25,585 nucleotides of DNA from the NCBI GenBank assembly GCA_018824765.1, contig JAHJFW010000077.1:1-25585 (forward strand). Reading direction: 5' to 3'. A program made the position numbers and the translations under genes. Of this stretch, positions 3,887-21,412 are shown one piece after another (the first letter of the stretch is position 1; the number at the start of each line of letters is the position of its first letter). This stretch comes from Patescibacteria group bacterium (GTDB lineage: Bacteria; Patescibacteriota; Patescibacteriia; 2-12-FULL-60-25). The notes under the pieces are model-generated. The model was not told where the DNA came from. It ran no database searches and worked only from the letters and a program-made list of their open reading frames with translations.

Positions 3887-5902
3887 CTATCGCTGAACAA
3901 TCACTTTCCTCTCCTTCACATCCTCGTGATACACCTCTAGTTTATCACCAACAATAATTTTCACCTTCCCCTTAAACGCCAAACCGCACTCTTGGCCGCT
4001 GTAGGCTTCTTTTACGTTCTGCTTGCCGGATTGGACGGATTCGATAACTCCCTCACCGACAGGCTCTTCCCCGCGCCAGACACGCACCTTTTCTCCAGCT
4101 ACAATTTTCCCATCTCTCACGGATCCGCCGATAACCATGCGGCCGTGTTCAGTCCGGAAAATGGCAGCCGTCATGAATTCTCCAAGCGGCGTAACAATAA
4201 CTTCCGGCGGAACCATGGCATTCAAACGCTCCACAACATCGTCAAACAAATCATAGATAACTTTCCACTCTTTCACTTCCACGCCTTTCTCGCGCGCAAG
4301 TATCGCCGCCTGCGGCGTAATCGCTACGTTAAATCCATACACAACAGCCGGCTGCGCATCCTCTGCGCGCAAGATGTCATTTTCCGTAACATTGCCCAAA
4401 CCTTTTTTAATAACTTCCACGCCGATCTCATCGTGCTGTATTTTTTCAAACATTCCCAGCAATGCTTCCAGCGAACCCAAAACGTCACATTTCAAAACCA
4501 CATTCAGCATCTTTTTCGCTTCGGTCTTATCTTCCTCAGCGACAGCAACTTTGGTTGCTGAAAGTTGTGAAGCTACCTGATACGATGATTTCACTTTTTT
4601 AACTTGCAGCGTCTTGGGATCTTTCGGGACTTCCAAAATATCTCCGACAGACGGTGCGGCCTTGAAACCCAAAATCTTCACAGGGGTCCCCGGCGGCGCG
4701 GCTTCGAGCATACCCCCGTTCCAATCACGCATTGCCCTGACGCGACCGTAAGCGGCGCCGGCAACACCAATATAATCGTTGCGCTTAAGAGTTCCGGTTT
4801 GCACGAGGACGGTCGCAACAGGCCCTTCGCCCTTGTCCACGTGAGCTTCGATAACTGTGCCGGCTGCCAAGCGTTCGGGATTAGCGACTATTTTATCGGC
4901 ATTTAAATCAGCCACCAACAAAATCATGTCTAAAAGATCATCAATTCCCAATCCGCTTTTGGCTGAAATTTTCACCAACGGAACTTTGCCGCCCCAATTT
5001 TCAACGGTTACGCCGTTTTCCGCCAACTGTGCGAGCACGCGGTCCGGATCCGCCTCCGGCTTGTCCATTTTATTCAGCGCCACCACGAACGGCAGTTTCG
5101 CCGCCTGGATAATGCTGATTGCTTCCTTTGTCTGCGGCTGGACGCCGTCATCCGCTGCCACCACCAAAACCGCAATATCAGCCACGCGAGCGCCACGCGA
5201 GCGCATGACTGTAAATGCTTCGTGTCCGGGGGTATCGATAAAAGTAATCCTTCTCCCCTTCTTTTCCACCATGTAAGCACCGATATGCTGCGTAATTCCA
5301 CCAGCTTCTCCGCCCATGACATTGGTCGAACGAATAGCATCCAGAGTTTTGGTTTTTCCATGGTCAACGTGACCCATAACCACAACCACCGGGGGACGCG
5401 CAATGTTGTCTTCCGATTTCTCACTGTCCATAATCTCACGCACCCGATCGCCCGCCTGCATCACTTCCGCCAAATCGTCGCCCTTCGCTTCTTCCGGCAG
5501 AGCTTGAAAACCCAACTCCTCGGCAATGATGGAAGCTGTTTCAAAATCAAGACGCTCGTTTTGTGTGGCTAAAATGCCGCCTTTCATCAACTGCTGGATC
5601 ACCTTGGTAACCGGCATATTCAACTTACCGGCAAAATCCCTGACAATTATCATTGGCTGTAAATGTATCTCTTTCAATTTCTGCGTAGACCCCTCGCCGA
5701 TCCCCGGTTTGGCTTCAACAATCAAAGCGTCGCGCAGCTTTTTGCGGCGTTCCATCTCTATCCATTTCCGCGCGATCTGTTCGCCGGTTCTGTCATCAAT
5801 TTTAATGGCACGCCTGCCGATATCAAAACCAAACTCCGGCAATCTTTCCAAAAGCTCACTTGGGGTAACACGCAATCGGCGCGCAAGATCTGATACGTTC
5901 AT
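3887..5902 (-). CDS. infB: Translation initiation factor IF-2
   Basis: GHVDHGKT, GGITQHIGAY, DTPGHEAFTVMRSRGA, NKMD GTPase motifs. Start placed at MNVSDLARRL (5902), which is supported by the promoter position; 671 aa. Confidence 0.98.
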   Translation of the reverse strand: MNVSDLARRLRVTPSELLERLPEFGFDIGRRAIKIDDRTGEQIARKWIEMERRKKLRDALIVEAKPGIGEGSTQKLKEIHLQPMIIVRDFAGKLNMPVTKVIQQLMKGGILATQNERLDFETASIIAEELGFQALPEEAKGDDLAEVMQAGDRVREIMDSEKSEDNIARPPVVVVMGHVDHGKTKTLDAIRSTNVMGGEAGGITQHIGAYMVEKKGRRITFIDTPGHEAFTVMRSRGARVADIAVLVVAADDGVQPQTKEAISIIQAAKLPFVVALNKMDKPEADPDRVLAQLAENGVTVENWGGKVPLVKISAKSGLGIDDLLDMILLVADLNADKIVANPERLAAGTVIEAHVDKGEGPVATVLVQTGTLKRNDYIGVAGAAYGRVRAMRDWNGGMLEAAPPGTPVKILGFKAAPSVGDILEVPKDPKTLQVKKVKSSYQVASQLSATKVAVAEEDKTEAKKMLNVVLKCDVLGSLEALLGMFEKIQHDEIGVEVIKKGLGNVTENDILRAEDAQPAVVYGFNVAITPQAAILAREKGVEVKEWKVIYDLFDDVVERLNAMVPPEVIVTPLGEFMTAAIFRTEHGRMVIGGSVRDGKIVAGEKVRVWRGEEPVGEGVIESVQSGKQNVKEAYSGQECGLAFKGKVKIIVGDKLEVYHEDVKERKVIVQR

Positions 5903-5909
5903 GCGTCGC

Positions 5910-5938
5910 ATCCTACGGGAAAACCGCAATTTGGTCAA
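5910..5938 (-). promoter_or_regulatory. Sigma70 promoter placing the infB TSS at or next to the ATG
   Basis: TTGACC (5938-5933), 17 nt, TAGGAT (5915-5910), 7 nt, ATG (5902). Confidence 0.7.
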
Positions 5939-6056
5939 CCTTCTTTTCCATGTAATTCGCACTTCGCATCCGGTGCAAAATGAACTCCGGCGATAATCCG
6001 TTTACCATCCCCCTGAAAGCCTTCGCAAGGTTGTCAGAGTGTGAGAGGATGTCCAT

Positions 6057-6914: not shown

Positions 6915-8456
6915 ATGACATTCTTTTATATTATTTTAGGGATTATTCTAGGATCGTTTTTTGGTTTTATAGCGGCCAAATCAATTGTCTCATCAAAAGG
7001 AAAAAAGCTCCAGCAGCTGGTTGATGAGGCTGAAGCCAAGGCTAAAAAATTGACTGCCGAAGCTGAAACCAAAGAAAAGGAGGTCTTAATCAAGGCAAAA
7101 GACAAAGCGGTAAAAATTCTGGAAGATGCGCGTTTGGAAGAAAAACGGGCGCTCGAAGAATTAAAAAAGCAACAGAACGCTCTCTCCGAAAAGGAGAATG
7201 TTTTTGGTACGAAATTATTGGAAATCGAGGACGCCCGCAAAGACATTGAAATTAAAAATTCCAAGCTGTTGGAGGACCAGCAAATCATCGAACAGATGAA
7301 ACAGGATGAAAGCGTCAAGCTGGAGGAAGTGGCCGGCTTGAACCAAGCAGAGGCACAAGAAAGGCTGTTGAAGCTGGTTGAAGAACAGAGCCAGGAGACT
7401 TTGATGTCGCGCGTCCGCAAATTGGAACAGATGGAATCGGAGGAAATTGACCGCAAAGCGAAAAATATACTGGCCGTGGCCATCCAGCGTTTGGCGTCCT
7501 CAACTGTCGTGGAAACAACAACCACGAACGTTGAACTGCCCAGCGACGAAATGAAGGGTCGCATAATCGGACGCGAAGGCCGGAACATCAAAGCCCTTGA
7601 ACTCTTAACCGGCTGCGAATTAATCGTGGATGATACACCCGGCATGATTACAATCTCCGGCTTCTCCCCCATCCGCCGACATGTGGCCAAACGCGCGCTG
7701 GACAAACTGATCGCCGATGGACGCATACACCCCGGCAGAATCGAAGAGGCTGTTGAAGAAGCTAAAAAAGAACTGGCGCTGGATATTAAAAAGGCTGGCG
7801 AAGACGCGCTGTTCCAACTTGGCATTGGCGTTGCCGGCATTGATCCCAAACTGGTGCAAATTCTAGGTCGCTTAAAATATCGAACTTCCCACGGCCAAAA
7901 TCAGCTGCAACATTCTACGGAAGTCGCTAATCTGGCCAGTTTGATGGCGGAACAATTGGGAGCGGATGTGACAATCTGTAAAAAAGGCGGGCTCTTCCAT
8001 GACATTGGAAAAGCTGTTGACCATGACTTGCAGGGCGGCCATCCGGAGCTCGGCTACCAAATCCTGAAAAAATTCGGATTCCCGGAAGAAATCTGCTATC
8101 AGTCGCTCGGCCATCATGAAGACAAACCGAAAACGCTGGAAGCGGTTATTGTGAAGGCGGCTGACGCCATCTCCGGCGCTCGGCCCGGAGCCCGGAAAGA
8201 GTCTCTGGAGTTTTACATCAAACGCTTGGAAGAGCTGGAAAACCTCGCCGCGGGCTTTGAAGGCGTGGAAAAAGTCTACGCCATCCAGGCTGGCCGCGAG
8301 ATTCGCGTCTTCGTTAATCCGAAAGAGATGGACGATTTCGGCGCAACAAAATTGGCGCGTGAAGTAGCCGCAAAAATCGAACAAGAATTAAAATACCCGG
8401 GTGAAGTGAGGGTAACCCTGATCCGCGAAACCAGAATCATCGAGTACGCACGGTAA
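6915..8456 (+). CDS. rny: Ribonuclease Y
   Basis: N-terminal TM helix, coiled coil, KH motif KGRIIGREGRNI, HD motif FHDIGKA, DAISGARPGAR. Start placed at MTFFY (6915). Confidence 0.98.
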   Translation: MTFFYIILGIILGSFFGFIAAKSIVSSKGKKLQQLVDEAEAKAKKLTAEAETKEKEVLIKAKDKAVKILEDARLEEKRALEELKKQQNALSEKENVFGTKLLEIEDARKDIEIKNSKLLEDQQIIEQMKQDESVKLEEVAGLNQAEAQERLLKLVEEQSQETLMSRVRKLEQMESEEIDRKAKNILAVAIQRLASSTVVETTTTNVELPSDEMKGRIIGREGRNIKALELLTGCELIVDDTPGMITISGFSPIRRHVAKRALDKLIADGRIHPGRIEEAVEEAKKELALDIKKAGEDALFQLGIGVAGIDPKLVQILGRLKYRTSHGQNQLQHSTEVANLASLMAEQLGADVTICKKGGLFHDIGKAVDHDLQGGHPELGYQILKKFGFPEEICYQSLGHHEDKPKTLEAVIVKAADAISGARPGARKESLEFYIKRLEELENLAAGFEGVEKVYAIQAGREIRVFVNPKEMDDFGATKLAREVAAKIEQELKYPGEVRVTLIRETRIIEYAR

Positions 8457-11293: not shown

Positions 11294-12568
11294 CTACTCT
11301 TCCGCGGCAAACGCAATCACTTCATCGCGTATATCCTGCACAGTCACCAGCGACGATGTTTTTTCTTGCCGCAATTTCCACTCGAATGCATTGTCTTTTA
11401 AAGTCTTCTCCGAAATTATCAAACGCAAAGGAAATCCGAGAAGATCCGCGTCCACCAACTTCTCTCCGGCGCTCACATCTGTGCGGTTATCCCACAAAAC
11501 TTCAATCCCCTCTTTTTCCAAATCATCATAAAGCCCCTCTGCCGTTTCACGAATGCGCGCCTGCAAACTTGCGTCTTTTGACGACAATGAAACCAGATGG
11601 ACTGCCATGGGCGCGACGGATTTCGGCCAAATGATACCGCGATCGTCATGCGACGCCTCAACAATGGCGCCCACCAGCCGCGTAATTCCGATGCCAAAAC
11701 ACCCCATATACACCAACTGCTTTTCGCCGTCTTCAGTAGTTACTTCGACATTAAAGGCCTCGGCAAATTTATGTCCCAGATCAAAGATATTGCCGATCTC
11801 GATCCCTTTTGTCATGCCAAGTGCGGCGCCGCATTCAGGACAGGAGCCGCCTTTTTTCACCGTCGCGATTTCCGCGTTTCGCGCAAAACTGCATGCTGTA
11901 CACGCTAAAATGTTATCTTCTCCCGCCGGTGTTTCCAAATGAAATTCGTGGGAAAACTTTTTGGAAAAATCACCGCCCGACGCCTCCGTAACTTTCGCGC
12001 GAATGCCGCACCGCCCAAAGACCCGCATATACGCCTCCATGGCGCGTCCATAAAAATCCTCCAAATCTTCTTGCGACAAATGAAATGAATACAAATCCTT
12101 CATTCCAAACTCACGCCCGCGCAAAACGCCGCTCTTAGCCCGCAACTCGTCGCGGTATTTTGTCTGAATCTGGTATACCGCCAATGGCAAATCCTTGTAA
12201 GATGAAATAAACGACTTTACGAGGGGTGTCACAATCTCTTCATGCGTGGCCCCTAGCGCAAATTCTTTTTTCGTCTGGCTCTTAAGCTTAAACAACACAT
12301 CAACCGTGTCCCAGCGGCCGGTCGTCATCCAATTCTCTTTCGGTTGAAGGCCGGGCATCAAGATCTCTTGCGCACCCAAGGCATCCATTTCCTCACGAAT
12401 AATCGCTTCCACCTTCCGCAACGTTTTAAGCCCCAACGGCAGCCATGAATAAACCCCGGCCATTTCTTGATGCACAAATCCGCCCTGCACCAGCAGTTTG
12501 GCATTCGCGGATTCGGCGTCGTGCGGCGGCTCTTTCGCGGTCTTTGTAAAAAGTTGTGTCATTCTCAT
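11294..12568 (-). CDS. proS: Proline--tRNA ligase, bacterial type lacking the INS editing domain
   Basis: MRMTQLFTKT, GGF...AGVYSWLPLG, LGATHEE, YQIQTKYRDELR.KSGVLRGREFGMKDLYSF, MGCFGIGITRLVGA. Start placed at 12568. Confidence 0.97.
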   Translation of the reverse strand: MRMTQLFTKTAKEPPHDAESANAKLLVQGGFVHQEMAGVYSWLPLGLKTLRKVEAIIREEMDALGAQEILMPGLQPKENWMTTGRWDTVDVLFKLKSQTKKEFALGATHEEIVTPLVKSFISSYKDLPLAVYQIQTKYRDELRAKSGVLRGREFGMKDLYSFHLSQEDLEDFYGRAMEAYMRVFGRCGIRAKVTEASGGDFSKKFSHEFHLETPAGEDNILACTACSFARNAEIATVKKGGSCPECGAALGMTKGIEIGNIFDLGHKFAEAFNVEVTTEDGEKQLVYMGCFGIGITRLVGAIVEASHDDRGIIWPKSVAPMAVHLVSLSSKDASLQARIRETAEGLYDDLEKEGIEVLWDNRTDVSAGEKLVDADLLGFPLRLIISEKTLKDNAFEWKLRQEKTSSLVTVQDIRDEVIAFAAEE

Positions 12569-12624
12569 ATTCCGCAATACTATCGCAAAAGAGAGCATTA
12601 GTGGCAAGTCATTTTCGCGTATAT

Positions 12625-13070: not shown

Positions 13071-13102
13071 GGACAAGATTTCCATCGTGCCAGACAAATG
13101 CC

Positions 13103-13140
13103 ATTATCAAAAATTTCCCGATCGGGAAATTTTTGATAAT
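13103..13140. repeat. 38-bp ATTATCA...TGATAAT palindrome, copy 3, abutting the tRNA-Arg 3' end
   Basis: ATTATCAAAAATTTCCC-GATC-GGGAAATTTTTGATAAT; extends to a perfect 42-bp palindrome at 13101-13142. Confidence 0.9.
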
Positions 13141-13214
13141 GGTGCACCCGCCAAGAATCGAACTTGGATCTCGGGCTTCGGAGGCCCGCATTCTATCCGT
13201 TGAAATACGGGTGC
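13140..13214 (-). tRNA. tRNA-Arg(CCG) with encoded CCA
   Basis: GCACCCGTATTTCAACGGATAGAATGCGGGCCTCCGAAGCCCGAGATCCAAGTTCGATTCTTGGCGGGTGCACCA; full cloverleaf, anticodon CCG. Confidence 0.97.
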
Positions 13215-13266: not shown

Positions 13267-13296
13267 TTGACTACGGGCACTAAATTCCTTTATTAT
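13267..13296 (+). promoter_or_regulatory. Promoter for the repeat plus tRNA-Lys transcript
   Basis: TTGACT (13267-13272), 18 nt, TATTAT (13291-13296). Confidence 0.6.
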
Positions 13297-13323
13297 CCAT
13301 AAGCTTCATAAAAATGAAATATT

Positions 13324-13487
13324 GCGTCGGTAATCGGCAGAGCCTCTTGCCGACGCGGCGTTCGGTCCATATGGTAGAGTAAACTCTCCCGCATTTCCCT
13401 CACTTGCGTCGGTAATCGGCAGAGCCTCTTGCCGACGCGGCGTTCGGTCCATATGGTAGAGTAAACTCTCCCGCATTTCCCTCACTT
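13324..13487 (+). repeat. Two identical 82-bp tandem units, each starting with a collapsed tRNA-Lys hairpin
   Basis: GCGTCGGTAATCGGCAGAGCCTCTTGCCGACGCGGCGTTCGGTCCATATGGTAGAGTAAACTCTCCCGCATTTCCCTCACTT at 13324 and 13406. The tRNA starts exactly one period later, at 13488. Confidence 0.95.
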
Positions 13488-13563
13488 GCGTCGGTAGCTC
13501 AATTGGCAGAGCAGGGGCCTCTTAAGCCCAAGGTTCTGGGTTCGATTCCCAGCCGACGCACCA
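13488..13563 (+). tRNA. tRNA-Lys(CTT) with encoded CCA
   Basis: GCGTCGGTAGCTCAATTGGCAGAGCAGGGGCCTCTTAAGCCCAAGGTTCTGGGTTCGATTCCCAGCCGACGCACCA; 76 nt, anticodon CTT. Confidence 0.97.
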
Positions 13564-13594
13564 AAAAAACAATGACAAACGTCGTTGTTTTTTT
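13563..13594 (+). terminator. Terminator after tRNA-Lys
   Basis: AAAAAAACAATGAC-AAAC-GTCGTTGTTTTTTT. Confidence 0.7.
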
Positions 13595-13643
13595 AATAAA
13601 GAAGCTTGGAATCGAGGGGTATTCTAAAAATAATTCTCCCGAT

Positions 13644-13679: not shown

Positions 13680-13901
13680 TCACATCTTCTTTTCTCCGCC
13701 CCCTTTGGCTTTGCAGGAGCCGCCGAACAACATTACCAAAGCTGACAACCCGACGAGGATATACACAACCCTCACGAGCGTTGGCCATAACCCGAAAATC
13801 AGATTGACAAGATCCAAATCAAAGGCTCCGACCAGCCCCCAATTTAATGCGCCTACGATCACGAGGATCCAGGCGACTTTTTGTAATAAGCCTGTCTTCA
13901 T
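13680..13901 (-). CDS. DUF378 family small membrane protein
   Basis: LVIVGALNWGLVG.F..DLV..IFG......RVVYILVGLSAL signature. Start placed at MKTGLL. Confidence 0.9.
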   Translation of the reverse strand: MKTGLLQKVAWILVIVGALNWGLVGAFDLDLVNLIFGLWPTLVRVVYILVGLSALVMLFGGSCKAKGGGEKKM

Positions 13902-13961
13902 AAAAAAATAAAACAATGAATTAATCTGCAATTCATTATAGCATTTTTAAGCCCTAGGCTG

Positions 13962-14765
13962 TTATTGGATGGTGAATACAAGCCTGGTTGTCGAGCTGGA
14001 ACCTTTATATTTCGCCGTAATATCAATATTTATCGTGCTGCCGGCGGGTACGGTTTCCGGCAGCGACAATCTATTAACATACAGCTCTCCGGTTGAAGAC
14101 GCCGTTGCAATTTTATCTCCTTCCGGATAATGAACAACGGCTGAAACCTCGGCGTCTTTTACGCTTCCGCCTTTTTGATCATTGACGATTGAGAATATTT
14201 CCATTACTTCGCCGGCCATTGGAAAAGAATTGGATAAACGCGCGCTCACGCCAATGCTTTCAATCTCGGTTGAAGAAGCTTGCGAGGCTTTTAAATCGCC
14301 TTTCGTCGCATATGTCCCAGTTGAAACAGGCGGGATGGCGAGCGGCGGCAAATCTTCTTCAGGCACAATGATCTCTTCTCGTTCGTCAACCGTACAATCT
14401 TTTACATTCAGACGCCGAGCCGGAGAAGCGCGGCGATCGCCCAGCAAGGCACGCAAAGAAACCTTTTCTCCAATCTCCGTTTTTGGCAGATTGCTAAACT
14501 CAAAAACGCCGTCACCGTCAGCCGACGCCGAACTAACTGGTAAACCCCACTCATTAAATATTACGATTGACGCATGCGGGTATGTTTTTCCCTTTATAAA
14601 AATTTCATTGCCCGCTCCTTTGAATTCCAAAATTTTCGGCATGGGCAAACTCAAAATATACGTGCCCGCCAAAAAACCTATGCCACAAGCCAAAAAAACA
14701 GCTATGGCAATTTTTAAATCAAAAGCGTCCAGCACCCGACTGAACAATTTTTTCAGCTTCTCCAT
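13962..14765 (-). CDS. Hypothetical membrane-anchored protein with probable Ig-like beta domains
   Basis: One N-terminal TM segment followed by beta-rich segments. Start placed at MEKLKK, overlapping the end of the femABX gene. Confidence 0.75.
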   Translation of the reverse strand: MEKLKKLFSRVLDAFDLKIAIAVFLACGIGFLAGTYILSLPMPKILEFKGAGNEIFIKGKTYPHASIVIFNEWGLPVSSASADGDGVFEFSNLPKTEIGEKVSLRALLGDRRASPARRLNVKDCTVDEREEIIVPEEDLPPLAIPPVSTGTYATKGDLKASQASSTEIESIGVSARLSNSFPMAGEVMEIFSIVNDQKGGSVKDAEVSAVVHYPEGDKIATASSTGELYVNRLSLPETVPAGSTINIDITAKYKGSSSTTRLVFTIQ

Positions 14766-15775
14766 CCTAATCGGTAAAAAATTAAACGGTATAAAGGCAA
14801 GTTTAACGGCAAATCCCAAGTTCCGTAAAGATCCAGCCTCTCCCCTCCCCAACCCTCCTTAAAACGCGTAATCCCCTCCCATGACCGTTTATAGGCAAAA
14901 GCTCCTTTTGACAAAGGGTTGATCCCCCAAAAATCATAATACGAATATCCGTCGCGTTTGGCTTGCAAGATCGCATCCCAATGCAAAAGATAGGGTGCCA
15001 TCAGTTGCCTGTCTCGCGAAGAAGATGCGCCGTGCAAATAAGTTACAGTATCTTCGCAGAGCATCTCCAAATTCGCGGCCAGCACCTTGCCTGCGCTAAC
15101 AGCCAGCCGCAAGCGCGCTGTGCCGGCAGCAATCCCGTTTTCCGCCAGTTTCCGCAAATACTCGCGGTCATGCTGGACGAATTTATCGCGTTTGGCCGTC
15201 TCATCCATCAAATCCAGAAACGCGTCCATGTCTTCCGTCTTTTCCACCAGCCGCACCAAAACTTTGCCGCGCTCGGCAACACGTATGTTGTAACGGGTTT
15301 TTTGTTTCAATTTTCCTGATATCTCCGCAATCGAAGGCGTCAAATCCAAAATCATGGTAGATGCCGGATTGGCCGAAAAAATCCTGCGCATAGACAATGG
15401 CATTAAGCCTTCTGGATGCCCCAAAGCTGCCAGCGGTTCAAACCGCCAAAATAATGCTCTGGCCATTTTTTGGCGTTTAAGATTCTCCAATAACGTTTGA
15501 AAAATTTCGCGCTTGTCATCGTCGCCTACATGGCGTGAAAAAACCGGGCCACGCGGCGCAAACCAGTAACCGCCGACGAATTTTTTCGGACGAAATTCCA
15601 TCTGCACTGCCGCAAGCCAAGCGCCGGCCTCGTCAACCAAAGCGAAACGCCGGACGTCCAGTCCGCACGAACGCCTGAATTCCCCCCACTTCCACGCTTG
15701 GGTGAACTGCGCGAATCGCTGCGCGTTTTGAAAATCATCCCAGAGCTCGGGTTTTGTGATTTCAACCAATTTCAT
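14753..15775 (-). CDS. FemABX/FemX-family peptidoglycan peptidyltransferase (lipid II aminoacyltransferase)
   Basis: FTQAWKWGEFR, YWFAPRGPV, LKQKTRYNIRVAER, YLHGASS, APYLLHWDAILQAK..G...YDFWGI, GITRFKEGWGG. Confidence 0.9.
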   Translation of the reverse strand: MKLVEITKPELWDDFQNAQRFAQFTQAWKWGEFRRSCGLDVRRFALVDEAGAWLAAVQMEFRPKKFVGGYWFAPRGPVFSRHVGDDDKREIFQTLLENLKRQKMARALFWRFEPLAALGHPEGLMPLSMRRIFSANPASTMILDLTPSIAEISGKLKQKTRYNIRVAERGKVLVRLVEKTEDMDAFLDLMDETAKRDKFVQHDREYLRKLAENGIAAGTARLRLAVSAGKVLAANLEMLCEDTVTYLHGASSSRDRQLMAPYLLHWDAILQAKRDGYSYYDFWGINPLSKGAFAYKRSWEGITRFKEGWGGERLDLYGTWDLPLNLPLYRLIFYRLGWRS

Positions 15776-21332: not shown

Positions 21333-21412
21333 CTCAGGACTCAGGGCTCGGGGCTCAGATCTCAGTTCTCAGTGCTCAGTTCTCAGTGCTCGGGGCTCAG
21401 GGCTCGGGGCTC
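21333..21412. repeat. Tandem array of 11 CTCRGNN heptamers in the divergent ileS-rpiB spacer
   Basis: CTCAGGA CTCAGGG CTCGGGG CTCAGAT CTCAGTT CTCAGTG CTCAGTT CTCAGTG CTCGGGG CTCAGGG CTCGGGG CTC. Confidence 0.92.

Follow-up and report, generated by a model that had tools for sequence, protein, structure and literature searches.

In the 25,585-nucleotide window analysed here (the whole stretch of contig JAHJFW010000077.1, from a Patescibacteria genome), two tandem 82-bp units lie immediately upstream of a tRNA-Lys(CTT) gene. We read these units as tandem copies of a conserved, structured 5′-leader cassette of the tRNA-Lys(CTT) transcription unit, and place the probability of this reading at roughly 55%. 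The window array is one recently amplified instance of a cassette family in candidate phyla radiation (CPR) bacteria; the cassette precedes at least ten kinds of tRNA gene, and in each case its first hairpin is matched to its own tRNA. A functional, co-transcribed RNA leader is favoured because the unpaired motifs of the cassette are conserved, its two helices are compensated, its position relative to the +1 of the tRNA is constant and a promoter-like site lies upstream. The family is apparently undescribed, and the function suggested for it below comes from sequence comparison; literature searches turned up no description of leaders with this four-part structure.

Structure of the tandem array

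In the window, Tandem Repeats Finder identifies a single strong array, at 13322–13496, with a period of 82 bp, 2.1 copies and 100% matches; the last, partial copy consists of the 25 nt preceding tRNA-Lys followed by the first 9 nt of the tRNA gene itself. The features of the locus are listed below, with hp1 and hp2 denoting the first and second hairpins of a unit.

13140–13214: tRNA-Arg(CCG), divergent
13267–13296 (+): promoter-like site TTGACT-18-TATTAT (pattern scan, 10 of 12 matches)
near 13303 (+): predicted transcription start, leaving a leader of ~20 nt ahead of the first hairpin
13324–13405 (+): unit 1, from sequence reading
13324–13356 (+): hp1 of unit 1, a 33-nt hairpin whose 5′ arm equals tRNA-Lys positions 1–9 and whose 3′ arm equals positions 65–72
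13357–13367 (+): linker of unit 1, GGCGTTCGGTC, conserved and single-stranded (alignment A1; family consensus [G/T][G/T]C[G/A]YYCG)
13373–13390 (+): hp2 of unit 1, strong in most relatives but weak here
13398–13405 (+): C/U-rich tail of unit 1, CCTCACTT, abutting the next hp1; the same tail precedes the +1 of the tRNA
13406–13487 (+): unit 2, identical to unit 1 (hp1 13406–13438, linker 13439–13449, hp2 13455–13472, tail 13480–13487)
13488–13563 (+): tRNA-Lys(CTT) with an encoded CCA (ARAGORN; 69.6 bits with the Rfam tRNA model)
13564–13596 (+): terminator-like hairpin (A-run, stem, U-run), seen in the fold of 13303–13600 and absent from the pattern-scan list

The hp1 of the unit folds with a free energy of −19.9 kcal/mol (z = −4.8), and none of 200 shuffled sequences did as well. 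It equals tRNA-Lys positions 1–9, 15–25 (with one mismatch), 32–36 and 65–72, which amounts to 32 of 33 nt once deletions of 5, 6 and 28 nt are allowed, and it is followed by GGCG, with no CCA. This alignment, first described in the first-pass annotation of the window, was reproduced on reading, and the derivation of the hairpin from a tRNA is supported. The outer 7 bp of hp1 are those of the tRNA-Lys acceptor stem in this genome. The exact copy of the tRNA within the unit is its 5′ end, which spans 9 nt, or 11 nt when two leader bases are counted. The remaining 49 nt, overlooked in the annotation, are also parts of the conserved element, namely the linker, hp2 and tail.

The promoter-like site, which the annotation had already singled out, has a counterpart (TTGACT-17-TAATAT) at the same place before the single-copy cassette of the relative G013; here and below, G000 is this genome, other G-numbers are relatives and L-numbers are cassette loci. 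Since the terminator-like hairpin directly follows the tRNA, the transcription unit appears to comprise the leader cassettes and the tRNA only.

An exact 82-bp tandem repeat cannot be counted reliably from short reads, and the source bin is metagenome-derived (903 kb in 130 contigs, 87% complete). However, a 112-nt piece (82 + 30) crossing the unit-to-unit junction is present with zero differences in Logan contigs from the runs X3, X5 and X6, of which X3 and X5 are DNA runs from other studies and X6 is an RNA run (metatranscriptome). Because the junction occurs without differences in independent runs, at least two tandem copies exist in nature, as the annotation had proposed, and the ratio of unit depth to flank depth in the Logan contigs (~2.4–3.7) suggests that the true number may be 3–4. 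With the junction intact in contigs of three runs from other studies, this excess depth, and independent arrays of other periods in relatives, it is extremely improbable that a single-copy hairpin leader was mis-assembled into two units. BLAST against all 130 contigs returned no further copies of the unit, the hairpin or the spacer, only the two in the window, and the idea of a dispersed repeat in this genome was dropped on this result. Scanning metagenomes with the junction gave no match; the hairpin pattern gave one G013-like single-copy contig.

A cassette family upstream of tRNA genes

Relatives were searched in the Uhrbacteria-like family of 127 genomes and 33 genera, whose order comprises the same 127 genomes, and the tRNA-Lys(CTT) locus was retrieved from 102 of them. 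About 20 of these 102 loci, in at least 12 genera, carry the element 73–82 nt upstream of the tRNA, in single or multiple copies. Alignment A1 resolves a four-part cassette with a length of 73–82 nt: hp1, a hairpin of 23–38 nt whose 5′ arm copies tRNA positions 1–9; an unpaired, conserved linker with the sequence GGCGTTCG or a close variant; hp2, whose sequence differs widely from genus to genus; and a C/U-rich tail, CCTCACTT or a variant, that ends exactly at the tRNA +1.

Two covariance models were used, R1 built from the Lys(CTT) cassettes only and R2 as a general model with a cut-off of E ≤ 0.001; matches weaker than about this value are partly false, as 5 of 20 that were fetched lay in coding sequence without a tRNA. 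The window unit scores 72.8 bits with R1 and 70.7 bits with R2. Although trained on Lys(CTT) alone, R1 recovered cassettes of this architecture ahead of tRNA-Arg(GCG), Arg(TCG), Lys(TTT) and Ala(CGC), and in these cassettes the arms of hp1 match the tRNA that each precedes. Since R1 had no knowledge of those tRNA sequences, this is independent evidence for cognate matching. R2 gave matches at its cut-off in at least 31 of the 127 genomes, in 15 of the 33 genera, and added Arg(CCG), Arg(TCT) and Ile(GAT) as well as more Arg(GCG), Ala and Lys(TTT) loci. Among 150 genomes sampled from the class, R2 also found cassettes in four other families, ahead of Lys(CTT), Lys(TTT), Gln(CTG) and Gln(TTG). 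A weak model match lies before tRNA-Cys in this genome.

The distribution is patchy and the copy number varies. The cassette is absent before tRNA-Lys(CTT) in the same-genus genomes G001–G003. Arrays of near-identical units, or of one and a half units, occur in G028, G125, G130, G134, G036, G141, G136, G024 and G062; of these, the array of G028 comprises five hairpins repeating every 55 nt, those of G130 and G125 two units, and those of G141 and G136 one and a half. A scan of 185,579 species genomes for the GCGTCGG direct-repeat pattern returned five real Patescibacteria loci, and 15 other matches that lie outside tRNA-Lys genes and are due to chance.

Some loci depart from the standard form. 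In L174 and L175 (G118 C3:69338–69595 and G130 C3:411490–411747), both before tRNA-Arg(GCG), hp2 has grown to a stem of ~130 nt that is flanked by the usual linker (GGCATTCGG) and tail (GCCTCACTG), indicating that the hp2 position tolerates large insertions. L177 (G066 C72:1911–2176) is a full cassette followed by a degenerate tRNA-Arg-like sequence without an ARAGORN call, arranged head-to-head with another cassette that precedes an intact tRNA-Arg(TCG), and may be a decaying duplicate locus. On contig C69 of this genome (17600–18100), tRNA-Gln(CTG) apparently sits in the loop of a long hairpin whose strands flank the gene, followed by a second cassette and a 5′-truncated tRNA-Gln-like remnant; this is a complex, rearranged cassette locus.

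Cognate matching and covariation

The 5′ arm of hp1 equals positions 1–9 of the cognate tRNA in 28 of 39 cassettes. Its mean number of mismatches is 0.46 against the cognate tRNA and 2.76 against non-cognate tRNAs, with 0 of 10,000 permutations as good, in a list that admitted up to two mismatches, so that the independent evidence is the result obtained with R1 across tRNAs. The copy ends at A9, as the next base of hp1 is never the G10 of the tRNA (0 of 41 hairpins). The 3′ arm behaves differently, since complementarity to the 5′ arm describes it better than does identity with the tRNA 3′ strand: G·U pairs of the tRNA are replaced by Watson–Crick pairs in hp1 in 15 of 17 cases, including the G3:U70 pair of tRNA-Ala in 3 of 3. 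G3:U70 is the alanine identity pair and a determinant for alanyl-tRNA synthetase. The same 3′ arm, CCGCCGC, pairs with three different 5′ arms in G137, G136 and G099.

Pairing in hp1 is maintained across the family. In 33 cassettes the helix is 95.5% paired, compensatory changes are found at six of its eight pairs, and none of 500 shuffles reaches its score. The hairpin has 10–15 stacked layers in 38 of 41 cassettes and a loop of 3–4 nt; its 3′ flank is [G/T][G/T]C[G/A] in 38 of 41, the base at the discriminator position is G or T, not A, and U is the commonest base at −1 (22 of 41).

The loops of hp1 vary between genera, and the D-loop-like and CTCTT segments are common to G000 and G013 only. 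In this lineage these segments are probably a real trace of a tRNA origin or of a longer conversion tract. Within the hp1 fold, CTCTT is partly paired and is not shown in a loop. The first-pass annotation had described the hairpin as a collapsed whole tRNA with a faithful 3′ strand; across relatives only the 5′ arm (positions 1–9) tracks the tRNA, and the 3′ arm follows its partner. The check that it suggested, a search of other CPR tRNA loci for upstream hairpins tracking their cognate tRNAs, gave a positive result.

The rest of the cassette is structured as well. The 50-nt spacers fold better than their shuffles (mean z of −2.3, n = 38), whereas the last 50 nt of cassette-free Lys(CTT) leaders have a mean z of −0.12 (n = 82), a difference with a Mann–Whitney p of 3e-10 among genomes that are not independent. 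A second hairpin of varying sequence is present in nearly all cassettes, and between G137 and G127, which belong to one genus, hp2 has undergone three double, pair-preserving changes.

Proposed mechanism

The promoter would transcribe the cassettes and the tRNA as a single RNA, and RNase P would then cut at the junction between the tail and the tRNA +1 to remove the leader. In the array, the junctions between a tail and the following hp1 reproduce this site, with the same tail, the same first nine bases and a helix of a length like that of the acceptor/T-arm stack. Since the tail/hp1 junction repeats the tail/+1 site over ~18–35 nt, the units may be cut apart too, and cleavage there could release unit-length leader RNAs. 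A cassette of this kind might benefit the yield, folding or timing of the tRNA.

Selection for mimicry of the acceptor stem is probably not what keeps hp1 matched to the tRNA; unequal recombination or slippage across the direct repeats formed by the tail and positions 1–9 would maintain the match. Exchange between these repeats would duplicate units into arrays, as in the two or more units here and the five in G028, and would also delete a cassette precisely, giving rise to the patchy distribution. Repeated cycles would overwrite the hp1 5′ arm with the current tRNA sequence, and the 3′ arm would follow by compensatory change. Such a model is consistent with the identity of the 5′ arm, the Watson–Crick pairing of the 3′ arm and the sharing of ‘old’ 3′ arms such as CCGCCGC.

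A connection with RNase P is possible. It is the only tRNA 5′-processing activity for which a candidate gene was found here, as two matches resembling RNase P RNA lie in this genome at C22:3679–4042 and C94:17946–18260 (67 and 43.7 bits, below the Rfam gathering score). RNase Z (TIGR02651) gave no match above the curated cut-off in this or any of the 127 family genomes. It had been considered as a partner for a hairpin that lacks CCA and was dropped; weak beta-lactamase-fold matches do not track the presence of the cassette. The tRNA-processing toolkit of the lineage looks divergent or reduced.

Several observations weigh against a leader processed by RNase P. hp1 lacks the 3′ RCCA and the T-loop that are features of good bacterial RNase P hairpin substrates. 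RNase P needs no match at positions 2–7; because of this indifference, the cognate match calls for the separate recombination argument, which is itself conditional. A single mismatch, mostly at position 4 or 5, interrupts about 60% of hp1 stems, even where the tRNA is invariant at that position; simple lag does not account for it, nor does the recombination model account for its frequent occurrence at position 5. hp2 is weak in this genome (z = +0.2), and the RNase P protein (rnpA, PF00825) was not found in the 87%-complete assembly. The X6 metatranscriptome contigs cover the cassette region and the untranscribed spacer at similar depth and indicate neither transcription nor processing. Finally, a few weak R2 matches precede sequence other than tRNA, such as a dnaB-like mRNA leader in which the first seven bases downstream are copied, and RNase P alone would not process cassette-like sequences before an mRNA.

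Alternative explanations

The cassette could instead be a selfish or mobile mini-element that encodes no enzyme and targets the 5′ ends of tRNA genes and some others. The hp1 3′ arm, complementary to the target, would serve as its guide, and arrays would arise by repeated insertion. We regard this as unlikely, if worth keeping in mind. It would account for the many different target loci, the patchiness among close relatives (including the absence in G001–G003), the tandem arrays, the sharp and constant boundary between tRNA positions 9 and 10, and the matches that precede sequence other than tRNA and copy the first 7 nt of what follows. The Lys(CTT) and Arg(GCG) cassettes of G136, which are nearly identical in linker, hairpin base and tail, also fit it, as do the many other partial tRNA copies around the tRNA genes of this genome. 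However, the 49-nt spacer has no second copy elsewhere in this genome, and cassettes of the same tRNA are similar among related genomes while mostly differing between loci of one genome (G137, G122, G121), as would be expected from long vertical residence. No sign of a recombinase, of terminal inverted repeats or of a target duplication of fixed length was seen, and each new target would require both hp1 arms to be rewritten.

Somewhat less likely still is a functionless, neutral relic, in which a duplication of the leader and tRNA-Lys was followed by internal deletion of the upstream copy and by recent re-duplication through slippage. The D-loop-like segment (10 of 11) and the anticodon-loop-like CTCTT, retained in tRNA order in the G000 and G013 loop, speak for such a history, and short microhomologies flank the inferred deletions. 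The 100% identity of the two units, and hence their recent duplication, agrees with it, as does the patchy distribution; several arrays also start with the spacer, with hp1 where the upstream tRNA copy would be. Against this, direct repeats should make the cassette easy to delete, yet it is present in 15 genera and in other families, hp1 and hp2 are maintained through compensatory changes, and the linker and tail motifs are conserved although unpaired. The same design also recurs at ten or more tRNA species, with hp1 always ending at position 72 and followed by the same linker-start motif.

Of similar standing to the relic, and likewise doubtful, is a programmable RNA device. This might be a cis-acting folding switch, in which hp1 and the acceptor stem of the tRNA would swap strands, as the minimum-energy fold of the whole transcript suggests, and so set the time at which the tRNA becomes a substrate of RNase P, or it might be an element that would spread at the RNA level to new stable-RNA 5′ ends by copying their first nine bases.

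A tRNA-mimic decoy or regulator appears distinctly improbable. In this case the hairpins would bind lysyl-tRNA synthetase (LysRS), an anticodon nuclease, a toxin or another tRNA-Lys factor, or would gate maturation by strand exchange. The arms do agree with the acceptor sequence of the cognate tRNA, a match for which RNase P has no need, and several copies per transcript would increase the dose. The minimum-energy fold computed for the 298-nt transcript (−120.6 kcal/mol) favours long-range pairing between hp1 arms and tRNA arms, so a folding switch would be physically possible, but co-transcriptional folding should favour the local hairpins. CTCTT is neither conserved nor displayed in a loop, CCA is absent, the discriminator is G or T rather than A, the G·U pairs including G3:U70 become Watson–Crick pairs in 15 of 17 cases, and most hp1 stems contain a mismatch. 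The decoys for LysRS or anticodon nucleases put forward in the first-pass annotation thus lose most of their appeal. A synthetase decoy was rejected for a hairpin without the tRNA G·U pairs (including G3:U70 of tRNA-Ala), CCA or the A73 discriminator, and an anticodon-nuclease decoy for a CTCTT that is confined to G000 and G013 and partly paired.

Other features of the locus and the genome

The divergent pair of tRNA-Arg(CCG) and tRNA-Lys(CTT) is syntenic in many genomes of the family. Immediately after the tRNA-Arg gene, a 19-bp near-perfect hairpin at 13101–13142 is terminator-like on the minus strand. Further along the window, three minus-strand genes encode a FemAB-family/GNAT protein (14753–15775), a Big_6-like protein (13962–14852) and a DUF378 membrane protein (13680–13931). 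The first of these, of the type that builds aminoacyl-tRNA-dependent peptidoglycan bridges, lies 1.2 kb downstream of tRNA-Lys; the idea taken from it, that hp1 might be a minihelix amino-acid carrier, was set aside for a hairpin with neither a CCA end nor LysRS determinants. A class II aminoacyl-tRNA synthetase gene with an HGTP anticodon domain lies at 11294–12607 (−), and a 7-nt tandem repeat, CTCAGGG, is present in 11.4 copies at 21333–21412, where it can also be read with a 21-nt period.

Other tRNA genes of this genome are accompanied by partial copies of themselves. A 30-nt repeat made of 20 nt of leader and positions 1–10 lies 105 nt upstream of tRNA-Leu(CAG), copies of positions 1–37 lie ~113 nt upstream of tRNA-Pro(GGG) and tRNA-Pro(TGG), and tRNA-Cys has copies of positions 1–20 and 17–43; these Leu, Pro and Cys loci are at C29 c[2244–2330], C89 c[5889–5962], C98 [3934–4008] and C91 [371–445]. 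Several tRNAs (Gly, Glu, Arg, Ala and Pro) have 3′-end copies 25–170 nt downstream. ARAGORN also calls a 95-nt tRNA-like gene at C102 c[8299–8393], with a four-base anticodon and the tRNA-Phe acceptor strand GCCGAGG, which may be an interrupted or variant tRNA.

Implications

Bacterial tRNA leaders are usually regarded as short, unstructured and disposable. The streamlined genome studied here, of ~1 Mb, retains a structured leader cassette of 73–82 nt and has amplified it. If the cassette acts in maturation, it would point to a level of tRNA processing or of dosage control that has gone unrecognised in CPR bacteria, which to our knowledge cannot be cultured alone; if it is selfish, it would be a new kind of tiny element living at tRNA 5′ ends. 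A switch or a propagating element, if real, would mean that the tRNA genes of ultra-small bacteria can be organised on a new principle. The cassettes also offer a concrete substrate set for studies of RNase P specificity and a natural case in which a gene and its leader evolve in concert. For annotation they are a pitfall, as they yield false ‘tRNA fragments’ and collapsed repeats in short-read bins.

Comparison with known systems

The units are not additional tRNA genes or cloverleaf pseudogenes, as ARAGORN and RF00005 call only 13488–13563 and the tRNA-Arg gene, and nothing within 13324–13487 at E values up to 10. A known RNA family was likewise ruled out by searching Rfam (release 15), which gave nothing above noise in 13324–13487 at E values up to 10 and only tRNA at the other cassette loci. 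Nor do the hairpins resemble a terminator or attenuator, a GC-rich hairpin with a U run behind it, since hp1 runs into GGCGTTCG and hp2 into a C-rich tail, and a terminator-like hairpin is found only after the tRNA.

Attachment-site (att) scars place a tRNA fragment, usually the 3′ part, at the far end of an integrated element that brings an integrase. The array shares with them a partial direct copy of a tRNA end near the intact gene. It differs in that only 49 nt separate hp1 from the tRNA, with no element or integrase open reading frame between or beside them, and in that the copy is folded into a conserved hairpin.

Model hairpin substrates of RNase P carry a 3′ RCCA and usually a T-loop. 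Like minihelices, and like natural hairpin substrates such as pre-4.5S RNA, the cassette presents a leader followed by a helix close in length to the 12-bp acceptor/T-arm stack, as hp1, with its 10–15 layers, is preceded by a C/U-rich tail or by the promoter-proximal leader. Unlike them, it has [G/T][G/T]C[G/A] (GGCG here) in place of NCCA and a 3–4-nt loop in place of a T-loop-like cap (hairpin substrates of RNase P are described in PMC12439589).

The t-elements and acceptor-stem-like stem-loops of plant mitochondria have been proposed as RNase P or RNase Z signals in longer transcripts (PMC1920247). hp1 shares their acceptor-stem-like character, since its outer 7 bp equal the acceptor stem and its helix covaries in 33 cassettes. 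However, t-elements carry the T-arm motif GGTTCRANYCC and flank mRNAs, whereas the cassette lies in the leader of the tRNA itself, copies the 5′ strand and brings a conserved backbone; the motif is absent from the unit, and the T arm is the part missing from hp1, so the cassette does not belong to this group.

The closest parallels are these plant elements and the tRNA-linked repeats of E. coli (tyrT, rrA/rrB/rrF). The latter lie in tRNA and rRNA operons, downstream of the gene, are co-transcribed, number one to five per locus, end with 18–19 bp of the 3′ end of the upstream gene and are mostly without known function (PMC8144298). As in those repeats, the cassette is often tandem and contains a short exact copy of one end of a neighbouring stable RNA. 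As the first-pass annotation had argued, the two are distinct: the cassette is located upstream, its first 9 nt repeat the 5′ end of the tRNA that follows, and it folds this copy into a hairpin within a linker, hairpin and tail backbone of its own. The cassette is thus a mirror image of the E. coli tRNA-linked repeats rather than a member of them.

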